A stretch of DNA of 64,000 nucleotides from Methanobacteriota archaeon (lineage in GTDB: Archaea > JAADCQ01 > Methanopyri > Methanopyrales > Methanopyraceae), in the NCBI GenBank assembly GCA_027064425.1, contig JAMOPO010000015.1, positions 160,001 to 224,000 on the forward strand. Direction: 5' to 3'. Positions 4,082-25,044 of this stretch are shown one piece after another. Position numbers and translations under genes: made by a program. The notes under the pieces were generated by a model, which was not told the origin of the DNA, ran no database searches, and was given only the letters and a program-made list of their open reading frames with translations. The stretch's first letter is position 1; each line of letters begins with the position of its first letter.

Positions 4082-4358
4082 CCTCCATCACCCCTCGCTG
4101 CACCCTCTTGCTGGCCTCAAGGAGCGAGTCCAGGATCAGGTCCGCGAGCGCGGGATCCAACCCCTCAGCTTTAAACCTCTCCCTCCACCTCCTCCGGAGC
4201 TCCCGCTCCCGCTCGCGGTCGGTCAGTGGCAGACCCTCCCTGGCCTTGACCCTCCCGATCTTCTCAGCGACCTTCAGCCTGCGGATGATGGTGTCCAGGA
4301 GATCCTCGTCGATGTCGTCAATTTGCCGCCTAAGACCCTCGAGCGCGCTCAAGACCAA
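4074..4358 (-). CDS. aroQ: Chorismate mutase (AroQ type); TTG start at 4352 or 4358
   Basis: LEGLRRQIDDIDEDLL..RRLKVAEKIGRVK..DRERE; adjacent to shikimate kinase. Confidence 0.85.
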   Translation of the reverse strand: MVLSALEGLRRQIDDIDEDLLDTIIRRLKVAEKIGRVKAREGLPLTDRERERELRRRWRERFKAEGLDPALADLILDSLLEASKRVQRGVMEDG

Positions 4359-5169
4359 CGACCCGCGCCCGAAGCGTTCTCCCCAGTTCTTCCCACTCAT
4401 CCTCTACGGCCTGGGCGTCCGAGCCGGTCTCGCACAGGGCCACGTAGGCCGGCCCGGTGCCGGATAACCCCGCCGCTGCCGCCCCGGCCTCCAGCGCGTC
4501 CACCACGGGGTCCAGGTCGTGCCCCAGCAGGGGACAGTACGCGGCCGAGTTGATCAGCATCGCCGACCGGTAGTCGCCGGCGAGCGCTCGCTCGAAGGCT
4601 GCCTCCGCCACCGGAGCCACCCTCTCCAGTCGCTCAACGTCCACCTCCCTGGTCTCCACCCTTCCTCCGGGGAGGAGGATCACCGCGTGATCGTAGGGGG
4701 GCTCGCGCAGGTCGACGATCCTGCGCTCGTCGTTCAGCGTGAGCACGATCCCGCCCAAAAAGGAGGCGCAGGCGTCGTCGTAAGCTCCCGTCGCCGTCAC
4801 TCCCGCCCTGATGCTGGCCTCGACCCCGAGCCGGACGACCTCGATGGGCTCCGGGTCCTCCCCCAGCGCCCGGAGCAGCGCCTCGATCACGGCGTTCGAT
4901 ACGGCGCTGCTGCTGGCCAGGCCCACCGCCACCGGGATCTCCGAGTCGATCTCGATGCGGAAGCCCACGTCCTCACCGGTCCGCTCCCGCACCACGTCGG
5001 CGCAGTGCTCGACGAGCGACGTGTCGTCAACGTCCGTCCTGACCTCGTCCTCGTCGGCCACCTGAGCACGGACGGTAACCTTCAAATCAAGCGCGAAGGC
5101 GCACCCCTTCTTGGCGGAGATGGCGTTGACGATGGTGCCGGCGGCGTAGGCGCTGCCCCGTCCCGGCAC
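4330..5169 (-). CDS. aroK: Archaeal shikimate kinase (GHMP family)
   Basis: GTIVNAI, GLASSSA, TGAYDDACAS, GLSGTGPA. Confidence 0.9.
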   Translation of the reverse strand: MPGRGSAYAAGTIVNAISAKKGCAFALDLKVTVRAQVADEDEVRTDVDDTSLVEHCADVVRERTGEDVGFRIEIDSEIPVAVGLASSSAVSNAVIEALLRALGEDPEPIEVVRLGVEASIRAGVTATGAYDDACASFLGGIVLTLNDERRIVDLREPPYDHAVILLPGGRVETREVDVERLERVAPVAEAAFERALAGDYRSAMLINSAAYCPLLGHDLDPVVDALEAGAAAAGLSGTGPAYVALCETGSDAQAVEDEWEELGRTLRARVVGLERARGS

Positions 5170-5211
5170 GATACCACCCCGGCACGCTCACTAGAGCCCG
5201 AGCGCGGGCCC

Positions 5212-5370
5212 GCCCCGGCGCGGCAGGCGGTGGGGAGGTGGCTGAGGGCCGCCGATGATCCACCGTTCAACGGTCGGGGCACACGGGCGATGAGCCCCGC
5301 TGGCCCGACCGGGCGGAGTTGGGCTCGCGCCCGACGATGACGCCCCGGTCCCGTCGGGCGGGGTACAGTC
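5212..5370 (+). ncRNA. Two-hairpin H/ACA guide sRNA (candidate)
   Basis: Each hairpin has a lower stem, a bipartite pocket, an upper stem with a GA/GAUGA K-turn, and an ACA box (5281-83, 5365-67) 14 nt from the pocket. Confidence 0.75.
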
Positions 5371-5821
5371 ACTCCTTTGGTTTCTCCAATCGCTCCATGA
5401 CGAACTCGCACTTCTCCTCGTCCACGTTGATCTCCTTCATGCGCATCTCCTGGTTGAACGTCTCCTCGGTGGCCTTCAGGATGAAGGAGGCGAACGGGCA
5501 GACCACCGGCACCTTGTCGCGCCTCAGCAGCGCCCGCTTCGCGTCGGAGAAGGGGCACTCGACCACCGTCACGCGGATCTCGTCCTCGGTCTCCTCAACC
5601 TCGACCGCCTCCACCGAGTCCAGCTTCTCGAGCACGTCCTCGATGTCGTGGGCCAGTGACTCCGCCGTGTCCCCTGTGATCTCCAGCAGCTCCTCGTCCT
5701 CAATGTGCTTGAGCATCGCACGGCCGGCGATCCGGTTGAGTGCCAGTGCCATCTTGCCATGCGTCTCGTAAAGGGCCTCTTGCAGCCCAATCACGAAGAG
5801 CTTTGATACCTTCTTCACCAT
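5369..5821 (-). CDS. Hypothetical protein, V4R/methanogen output-domain-like
   Basis: Typical codon usage; VTVVECPF...VCPF...CEF cysteine pattern. Confidence 0.55.
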   Translation of the reverse strand: MVKKVSKLFVIGLQEALYETHGKMALALNRIAGRAMLKHIEDEELLEITGDTAESLAHDIEDVLEKLDSVEAVEVEETEDEIRVTVVECPFSDAKRALLRRDKVPVVCPFASFILKATEETFNQEMRMKEINVDEEKCEFVMERLEKPKE

Positions 5822-20233: not shown

Positions 20234-20309
20234 TGGTGCGGCCGCCGGGATTTGAACCCGGGCCACGGGCTCGGCAGGCCCGCGTCCTACCAGACTAGAC
20301 TGCGGCCGC
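20234..20309 (-). tRNA. tRNA-Gly(GCC), C at position 8, encoded CCA
   Basis: GCGGCCG-C-A...CGGGC CT GCC GA GCCCG...GGTTCAAATCC...ACCA cloverleaf. Confidence 0.97.
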
Positions 20310-23644: not shown

Positions 23645-23753
23645 TGGTGCCGCGGCCGGGATTTGAACCCGGGCCCACCGGATGGCCGAGGCCCCGCGGA
23701 CGACCCGCGGGGCCTCTTCAGTCCGGCGCTCTCCCAGGCTGAGCTGCCGCGGC
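23645..23753 (-). tRNA. tRNA-Phe(GAA), C8, with a 32-nt BHB intron at 37/38 (23684-23715)
   Basis: Cloverleaf; BHB central helix CTGA/TCGG with AGA and CCA bulges; encoded CCA. Confidence 0.95.
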
Positions 23754-24966: not shown

Positions 24967-25044
24967 GGGGCCGTGGGGTAGCCTGGTCTATCCTTCCGGC
25001 TTTGGGGGCCGGAGACCCCGGTTCAAATCCGGGCGGCCCCACCA
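24967..25044 (+). tRNA. tRNA-Pro(TGG), U8, encoded CCA
   Basis: GGGGCCG-T-G...CCGGC TT TGG GG GCCGG...GGTTCAAATCC...ACCA. Confidence 0.97.

Follow-up and report, generated by a model that had tools for sequence, protein, structure and literature searches.

The window analysed here is a stretch of 64,000 nucleotides (nt) from an archaeon of the family Methanopyraceae (assembly GCA_027064425.1, contig JAMOPO010000015.1, forward-strand positions 160,001 to 224,000), and the element under study lies on its plus strand at positions 5212-5367, in a 199-nt intergenic gap. This gap is bounded on one side by the stop codon (5369-71) of a minus-strand gene for a 150-amino-acid protein with no Pfam match and on the other by the start codon side of a minus-strand GHMP-kinase gene, while a gene for SRP54 is found farther along, past this pair. 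The 3' end of the element abuts the stop codon of the convergent 150-residue gene. Judged from sequence comparison, the element is probably a two-hairpin box H/ACA guide small RNA (sRNA) that would pseudouridylate U12 of the 16S ribosomal RNA (rRNA) and, most likely, also the residue equivalent to position 757 of Escherichia coli 16S rRNA. The source genome comprises 57 contigs and 1.54 Mb with 67.8% G+C, and was compared with five other genomes of its genus, which is the sole genus of its phylum in our genome collection; among these, G002 is a complete congener genome that is 88% identical to the source genome across the RNA.

Architecture and conservation of the RNA

The element consists of two hairpins of identical plan, each with a lower stem, a pocket, an upper stem, a kink turn (K-turn) and an ACA box (Table 1), and the spacing from the upper stem to the ACA is 14 nt in hairpin 1 and hairpin 2 alike. 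With six Watson-Crick base pairs (bp) from the pocket to the K-turn, 14-15 nt to the ACA and the dinucleotide UN of the target left unpaired, the geometry of hairpin 1 is canonical as described by Muller et al. 2008 (PMC2377435). The upper stem of hairpin 2, with 9 bp and a bulge, exceeds the canonical length. Across the six sequences of the genus, 100% of the cells of the hairpin 1 lower stem are paired, with one-sided variation in three pairs, and the upper-stem pair U5231-A5262 covaries to U-G and C-G. In hairpin 2, double changes are seen in two upper-stem pairs and two closing-stem pairs.

The sequences outside the hairpins are conserved too, and in one congener (G004) the leader change G5196 to A is matched by the linker change C5288 to U. 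From these sequences, the leader (5194-5200) and the linker (5284-5293) could form a third K-turn with a helix enclosing hairpin 1; alternatively, the leader may fold into a local hairpin (5196-5200 with 5205-5209) or pair through 5208-11 with 5285-88. In hairpin 2 of the window, and also in two hairpins located elsewhere in the genome (one at C52:73779 and one on contig C27, both described further below), the lower stem is directly preceded on its 5' side by the motif GAUGA.

Several tests set this architecture apart from chance. The plus strand folds at -103.5 kcal/mol (z = -2.83 against shuffled sequences), and the minus strand is no more stably folded than shuffled sequences (z = -0.44). 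A strict H/ACA descriptor was applied that demands mismatch-free stems, a GA/GA K-turn and its closing stem, and an ACA at a distance of 13-16 nt. It matched three sites on both strands of the 1.54-Mb genome, one of them being hairpin 1; in the controls, one reversed genome and three locally shuffled ones, it matched 0, 1, 1 and 0 sites. Hairpin 2 was missed by this descriptor because of the bulge in its upper stem. Orthologues with 77-95% identity are present in all five other genomes of the genus. In the six-sequence alignment 94.4% of the pair cells hold standard pairs, as compared with 36-50% after a shift of the 3' partners by 1-3 columns, and compensatory double changes occur in 7 of the 45 pairs as compared with 0-2 in the shifted controls, although six related sequences constitute a small sample. 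The sequence-only reading, which had proposed a two-hairpin K-turn H/ACA RNA, is thus borne out by sequence, fold, covariation and descriptor; its description of both hairpins as canonical holds for hairpin 1 and does not fully apply to hairpin 2, which has the 9-bp bulged upper stem and leaves three target bases unpaired.

The distribution of the RNA was examined with a covariance model built on hairpin 1 and searched over 151 genomes. At E <= 1, matches were obtained in nine genomes, namely the six of the genus and G039, G086 and G149, with three to six H/ACA-type matches per genus genome. Of the three matches outside the genus, those in G039 and G149 were inspected, and the former was rejected as an orthologue on account of its different pockets and the latter (23.4 bits) on account of its poor alignment; the match in G086 is partial (E = 0.86). 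A search for the exact guide pattern over 401 genomes recovered all six genus genomes and three of the 395 other archaeal genomes, and these three matches, AT-rich and not forming hairpins, were dismissed as chance. In the genomes covered (151 with the covariance model, 401 with the exact pattern), none outside the genus was, therefore, seen to carry the hairpin 1 guide.

Table 1. Coordinates of the RNA elements, neighbouring genes, transfer RNA (tRNA) genes and native rRNA fragments; positions are those of the window unless a contig is named
Feature	Position	Strand	Remarks
5' leader	5194-5211	+	AGA-GCCCG-AGCG-CGGGC-CC; near-invariant in 6/6 genomes
Hairpin 1 lower stem	5212-5219 GCCCCGGC / 5273-5280 GUCGGGGC	+	8 bp
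Hairpin 1 5' guide strand	5220-5226	+	GCGGCAG (CGGCAG = 5221-5226); pairs with 16S C14-G19; invariant in 6/6
Hairpin 1 upper stem	5227-34 / 5259-66	+	Six Watson-Crick pairs with G-U pairs at both flanks
Hairpin 1 K-turn	GA 5235-36 opposite bulge GAU 5254-56 and GA 5257-58	+	Read from sequence
Hairpin 1 closing stem and loop	5237-42 / 5248-53	+	Closes K-turn
Hairpin 1 3' guide strand	5267-5272	+	UCAACG (UCAAC = 5267-71); pairs with 16S G7-A11; invariant in 6/6
Hairpin 1 ACA box	5281-83	+	Invariant in 6/6
Inter-hairpin linker	5284-5293	+	CGGGC-GAU-GA; conserved in 6/6; C5288 to U in G004
Hairpin 2 lower stem	5294-5300 / 5358-5364	+	Read from sequence
Hairpin 2 5' guide	5301-06	+	UGGCCC; same in 5/6 genomes, replaced in G004; pairs with 16S GGGCCG
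Hairpin 2 upper stem	5307-15 / 5341-50	+	9 bp and one bulge (C5343)
Hairpin 2 K-turn	GA 5316-17 opposite GAU-GA 5336-40	+	Read from sequence
Hairpin 2 closing stem	5318-24 / 5329-35	+	Closes K-turn
Hairpin 2 3' guide	5351-57	+	CCGUCGG; pairs with 16S (U)CCGACGG
Hairpin 2 ACA box	5365-67	+	Invariant in 6/6
150-amino-acid protein gene	5369-5821	-	No Pfam match; stop codon 5369-71 bounds gap
GHMP-kinase gene	4330-5169	-	Start codon side bounds gap
tRNA gene	20234-20309	-	
tRNA gene	23648-23753	-	
tRNA gene	24967-25044	+	
Native 16S nt 1-121	C29:1-121		Contig end; BLAST with congeneric rRNA
Native 16S nt 1303-1517	C57:193138-193351		Contig end; BLAST with congeneric rRNA
Native 23S ends	C45:1-481 and C26:1-178		Contig ends; BLAST with congeneric rRNA

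Predicted targets in the 16S rRNA

Rfam searches of the source genome for 16S and 23S rRNA reported none. The rRNA operon is broken in this assembly, and BLAST searches with congeneric rRNAs recovered end pieces of the 16S and 23S genes at contig edges (Table 1). The 16S rRNA of the congener G003 matches the two native 16S fragments at 100% and 99% identity and served as a proxy for the native molecule.

The native 16S rRNA begins with ACUCCGGUUGAUCCUGCCGGAGG, as seen in the fragment on contig C29 and in all four congeneric 16S genes. Within it, UCAAC of hairpin 1 is complementary to G7-A11 (5 bp) and CGGCAG to C14-G19 (6 bp), so that 11 Watson-Crick bp flank the unpaired U12 and C13, and U12 lies 14-15 nt from the ACA. 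On alignment to an E. coli rrs gene, U12 corresponds to U17, the base with which the helix of the central pseudoknot (17-19/916-918) begins. The next-best site for this pocket in the 16S and 23S rRNAs of G001 and G002 offers 6 bp. In a scan of the whole genome, 12 of 495,262 U positions reach at least 11 bp with pocket 1, and the 16S site is the sole one of these without a G-U pair; when the pocket strands were shuffled, 2 of 1000 reached the observed score on the pair of 16S and 23S rRNAs. Both strands of the pocket are invariant in the six genomes while the stems vary. The guide variant UUCGGCAG, present in G001, G002 and G004, extends the 5' guide duplex, which against the 16S rRNAs of G001 and G002 comes to 8 bp for a total of 13 bp. 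Taken from sequence, the pocket of hairpin 1 most likely positions U12 for a predicted pseudouridylation by Cbf5.

Pocket 2 is less regular. With the canonical two unpaired target bases, no good rRNA site was found for it, and with three unpaired bases (UGA) it pairs through 8+6 = 14 bp, two of them G-U, around GGGUCCGACGG-U-GA-GGGCCG, at 16S position 729 in G001, 730 in G002 and G004, and 732 in G003. The next-best rRNA site offers 7-8 bp, and a score as high as the observed one was obtained with 3 of 1000 shuffled pockets. In the comparison with rrs the target U falls on E. coli 757, and the sequence CCGACGG-U-GA-GGGCC is present in all four congeneric 16S genes. A precedent is provided by the Pyrococcus guide Pab19, which leaves two bases unpaired 3' of its target U and is described as strongly active in vitro (PMC2377435); it leaves 5'-UGC-3' unpaired where hairpin 2 would leave 5'-UGA-3', and it differs from hairpin 2 in its target, 16S 1017, and in its hairpin dimensions. 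Hairpin 2 of G004 (L018 1584-1673) has a substituted 5' guide (UAAGAAAGGU) and an altered 3' guide next to an intact hairpin 1, which suggests guide turnover or loss in one species. On these sequence comparisons, the chances that hairpin 2 targets the equivalent of E. coli 757 are roughly even.

The sequence-only reading had drawn its targets from remembered consensus rRNA sequences. The complementarity that it proposed between pocket 1 and GUUGA-U-C-CUGCCG was recovered at the 16S 5' end in the native fragment and in all four congeners, that of pocket 2 with the 757 region in the four congeneric genes, and alignment to rrs confirmed both E. coli equivalents that it named, U17 and 757. A comparison with the organism's own 16S rRNA, which it had suggested, could be carried through for pocket 1 on the C29 fragment; the region facing pocket 2 is unassembled and the congeners stood in for it.

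Around the 16S genes of the congeners (L006-L008, L010), 14-nt complementary segments are located ~45 nt upstream and ~45 nt downstream (CCGCCCUCCGGGGC / GCCCCGGAGGGCGG in G001). These segments likely form a processing stem, with the 16S 5' end itself outside the stem. In addition, a GGGGAUGAUG motif follows the 16S 3' end in the congeners.

Protein partners, RNA libraries and known guides

The proteins of an H/ACA ribonucleoprotein (RNP), Cbf5, Gar1, Nop10 and L7Ae, are all encoded in the source genome, each scoring above its curated cut-off. Evidence at the RNA level was sought in four size-fractionated RNA sequencing (RNA-seq) runs (X1-X4) of one study, representing at most two samples, that contain the orthologous locus of G002, a cultured relative. 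Contigs of all four runs cover the whole G002 orthologue, carrying no information on strand, ends or level; the leader is joined to hairpin 1 (L016 1450-1534), and hairpin 1 to hairpin 2 (L016 1541-1661), within single contigs. What these contigs establish is presence in RNA libraries and not a discrete plus-strand sRNA. A group of short RNA contigs was also observed at L016 1423-1485 (approximately 5122-5184 of the window), with A-tails behind 1475-1479 and T-tails before 1423-1428; these could derive from the H/ACA precursor, as its processed 5' leader, or from the GHMP-kinase messenger RNA (mRNA), as its 5' end.

A close parallel is found in Pyrococcus. Motif 2 of Pab105 (Pf3; Rfam HgcE, RF00060) belongs, like the RNA of the window, to a two-hairpin K-turn H/ACA sRNA that pairs with the 5'-terminal loop of the 16S rRNA, and it guides pseudouridine (Ψ) 27 of P. 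abyssi 16S rRNA (position 15 in P. furiosus), as established by mapping with 1-cyclohexyl-(2-morpholinoethyl)carbodiimide metho-p-toluenesulfonate (CMCT) and by in vitro reconstitution (Muller et al. 2008, PMC2377435). In the Thermococcales-type genome G011, the strands CUCCGG and GGAU of the HgcE copy flank U15 of AUUCCGGUUGAUCCUGCCGGAG, the equivalent of E. coli U20. The target of Pab105 motif 2 is thus located 3 nt downstream of U12, and, unlike the window RNA, this motif is reported to serve two 23S sites as well. Pairing near the central pseudoknot is, accordingly, not unprecedented (PMC2377435). A comparison of HgcE with the window gave no match even at E = 10, and hence no detectable sequence relationship between the two RNAs. 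HgcF, for its part, has no match in any of the six genus genomes; it was initially considered as the Pab105 family and dropped, HgcF being Pab35 and HgcE being Pab105.

A second parallel comes from Sulfolobus islandicus, where sR109, an atypical RNA of the H/ACA type, guides 16S-Ψ8 in a Cbf5-dependent manner; its deletion removes the Ψ and slows growth, and a homologous site has been predicted in Pyrobaculum (PMC11077068). As predicted for hairpin 1, sR109 acts on a uridine among the twelve or so bases at the start of the 16S rRNA, and its site would lie 4 nt upstream of U12 if the numbering starts at the usual AUUCCGG. There are therefore established cases of H/ACA guides directed to the 5'-terminal loop of the 16S rRNA; the apparent novelty lies in the precise residue, U12 (E. 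coli U17), and in the lineage. A literature search returned no report of a guide for U12 or E. coli U17, although supplements may hold one.

Other H/ACA-type hairpins were noticed in the genome outside the window. A second canonical hairpin, on the minus strand at C52:73779-73850, is present in all six genus genomes (L049, L059-L064) with invariant pocket strands UGGGUC / CCGGAG. It pairs through 11 bp around 16S U8 (CUCCGG-U-U-GAUCC), a site that ties with 11 bp at 23S U2887. As 16S U8 may be the site modified in Sulfolobus, this hairpin would, by its sequence, be a better candidate than the window RNA for the Ψ8 site; if its target is indeed U8, two guides of the genus would bind overlapping parts of the 16S 5' end. 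Further H/ACA-type hairpins are located at C3:25966-26049 (+), C57:25903-25969 (-), C27:231326-231418 (-) and C52:118847-118924 (-). Those on C3 and C57 are directly preceded by C/D-box-like motifs, and the one on C57 has a second, ACA-terminated hairpin after it.

In Methanopyrus kandleri, 126 C/D and 6 H/ACA sRNAs have been described by RNA-seq, and the 5' leader of one of these H/ACA sRNAs is reported to be targeted by a C/D guide (Su et al. 2013, PMC3695527). It seems likely that an orthologue of the window RNA is among the six. A search for C/D sRNAs complementary to the leader of the window RNA gave no match of at least 10 nt with a convincing C/D context. The same report describes for M. 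kandleri tRNAs with C at position 8 that is edited to U (Su et al. 2013, PMC3695527). In the source genome, 27 of the 35 predicted tRNA genes have C at this position, including tRNA-Gly and an intron-containing tRNA of the window, while tRNA-Pro has T8. On the strength of this trait the source organism is probably of the Methanopyrus type, from that genus or very close to it. The intron-containing gene, 23648-23753 (-), has a length of 106 nt, was detected by Rfam with 44.9 bits and missed by ARAGORN, and probably has its intron after the anticodon loop.

Interpretation, alternatives and significance

Considering all the evidence, we regard as probable that window 5212-5367 encodes on its plus strand a two-hairpin box H/ACA guide sRNA for the pseudouridylation of 16S U12 and, most likely, of the 757 equivalent as well. 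We infer that the RNP assembles, which strand the RNA comes from and where it ends, and that modification takes place. In the proposed mechanism, L7Ae would bind each K-turn, and Cbf5, Nop10 and Gar1 would occupy the lower stem and ACA of each hairpin. The pocket of hairpin 1 would then pair with 16S nt 7-11 and 14-19, leaving U12 and C13 unpaired; with U12 placed 14-15 nt from the ACA, where the active site of Cbf5 lies, U12 would therefore be converted to pseudouridine. Hairpin 2 would act likewise at the 757 equivalent (729-732 in the congeners) through an atypical pairing with three unpaired bases. Such an RNP must find 16S nt 7-19 unfolded in order to bind and would, therefore, act early in assembly, so that a secondary chaperone effect is conceivable, although a U3-like role, as alluded to in the sequence-only reading, is speculative.

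A number of observations weigh against this interpretation. For hairpin 1, the 3' guide duplex, which Muller et al. 2008 (PMC2377435) describe as the critical one, is just 5 bp long and A/U-rich (UCAAC:GUUGA), and two mRNA-like sites outside the rRNA of the source genome match its pocket no less well than the 16S site (12 bp, one G-U each). Hairpin 2 departs further from the canonical form, with its non-canonical three unpaired target bases (UGA) and its 9-bp bulged upper stem, as in Pyrococcus upper stems of 7 bp are already reported as non-functional (PMC2377435); hairpin 2 of G004 shows no good rRNA match (best 7-10 bp) though the G004 16S rRNA keeps the site, and the native 16S nt 122-1302 were absent from the source assembly in the BLAST searches. 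Rfam holds no family that covers this RNA at its gathering threshold, the best match being HgcG (Pab40) hairpin 3 in the K-turn region of hairpin 1, with 9.2 bits against 77 (E = 2.2). As regards expression, the RNA contigs come from a relative that is 88% identical and not from the organism of the window, and a minus-strand operon transcript or read-through from the flanking genes could contribute to them. Finally, no pseudouridine or modification data for any member of the genus were found in the literature.

The same RNP could bind the same sites in a mainly structural capacity, delaying or ordering the folding of nascent 16S rRNA in the manner of U3 or snR30, with pseudouridylation absent or secondary. 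The eukaryotic U3 and snR30/U17 small nucleolar RNPs (snoRNPs) pair with pre-18S rRNA, U3 at the pseudoknot strands, to control its folding (PMC8339473), and scaffolding roles are on record for the H/ACA RNPs snR30 and snR37. The stretch paired by hairpin 1 extends over the 5' side of helix 1 and the opening bases of the pseudoknot, hairpin 2 would hold the helix-20 strand of the same rRNA, and the geometry of hairpin 2 is atypical for catalysis. However, U3 is a C/D-type RNA, and neither U3 nor snR30 modifies its own binding site, whereas hairpin 1 has the fully canonical geometry of a modifying guide, with U12 in the catalytic position, at 14-15 nt from the ACA, and left unpaired together with one further base. 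Moreover, genuine modification of nearby sites in this loop is described for Pyrococcus and Sulfolobus in the reports cited above, and a 2021 review (PMC8339473) knows of no archaeal snoRNP that acts independently of modification; we consider a mainly structural role unlikely.

It is also conceivable that the RNA is a genuine H/ACA guide whose substrates lie elsewhere, among mRNAs, tRNAs, other sRNAs or mismatched 23S sites, and that its matches to the 16S rRNA are fortuitous. The two 12-bp sites for pocket 1 outside the rRNA and the many GC-rich matches of pocket 2 genome-wide would fit this, as would the ability of Pyrococcus motifs to serve several sites (PMC2377435). Yet rRNA makes up ~0.15% of the scanned sequence and nevertheless holds the sole all-Watson-Crick match, shuffled pockets seldom reach the observed rRNA scores (2 of 1000 for hairpin 1 and 3 of 1000 for hairpin 2), and the strands of pocket 1 are invariant across the genus, all of which makes fortuitous matches quite improbable. 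Still further from the evidence is a terminator or regulator acting at the DNA or mRNA level for the flanking minus-strand genes, with no stable RNA made. The position between the stop of the 150-residue gene and the start of the GHMP-kinase gene, both on the minus strand, and the strandless nature of the RNA contigs would be compatible with it, but the minus strand folds no better than shuffled sequences, K-turn, ACA spacing and covariation are features of the plus strand alone, and further hairpins of the same design exist in the genome, so that we give this explanation hardly any weight.

Modification and structural action could also be combined. A bifunctional RNP would isomerise U12 while sequestering 16S nt 7-19, i.e. 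helix 1 and the 5' strand of the pseudoknot, with hairpin 2 holding the helix-20 strand at the central-domain junction. Such a dual role is, in our estimate, doubtful; if true, the RNP would be an archaeal counterpart of U3 and snR30 that times the formation of the central pseudoknot near 100 degrees C, and, together with a second guide possibly acting at U8, it would make the 16S 5' loop a controlled checkpoint of archaeal 30S assembly.

Under the preferred reading as a modification guide, the analysis reveals no new mechanism; it supplies a missing annotation, because no Rfam family covers the RNA of the window. The pseudouridine that it predicts would occupy the nucleotide opening the central pseudoknot, probably with another at the 757 equivalent, in a hyperthermophilic lineage. 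Three archaeal lineages would then aim H/ACA guides at the 16S 5'-terminal loop, with Pyrococcus U15 and Sulfolobus U8 verified and U12 of the present genus predicted. Because all three target the same loop, each at a different uridine, this suggests that stabilising the 16S 5'-terminal loop, or timing its formation, is a recurrent need.

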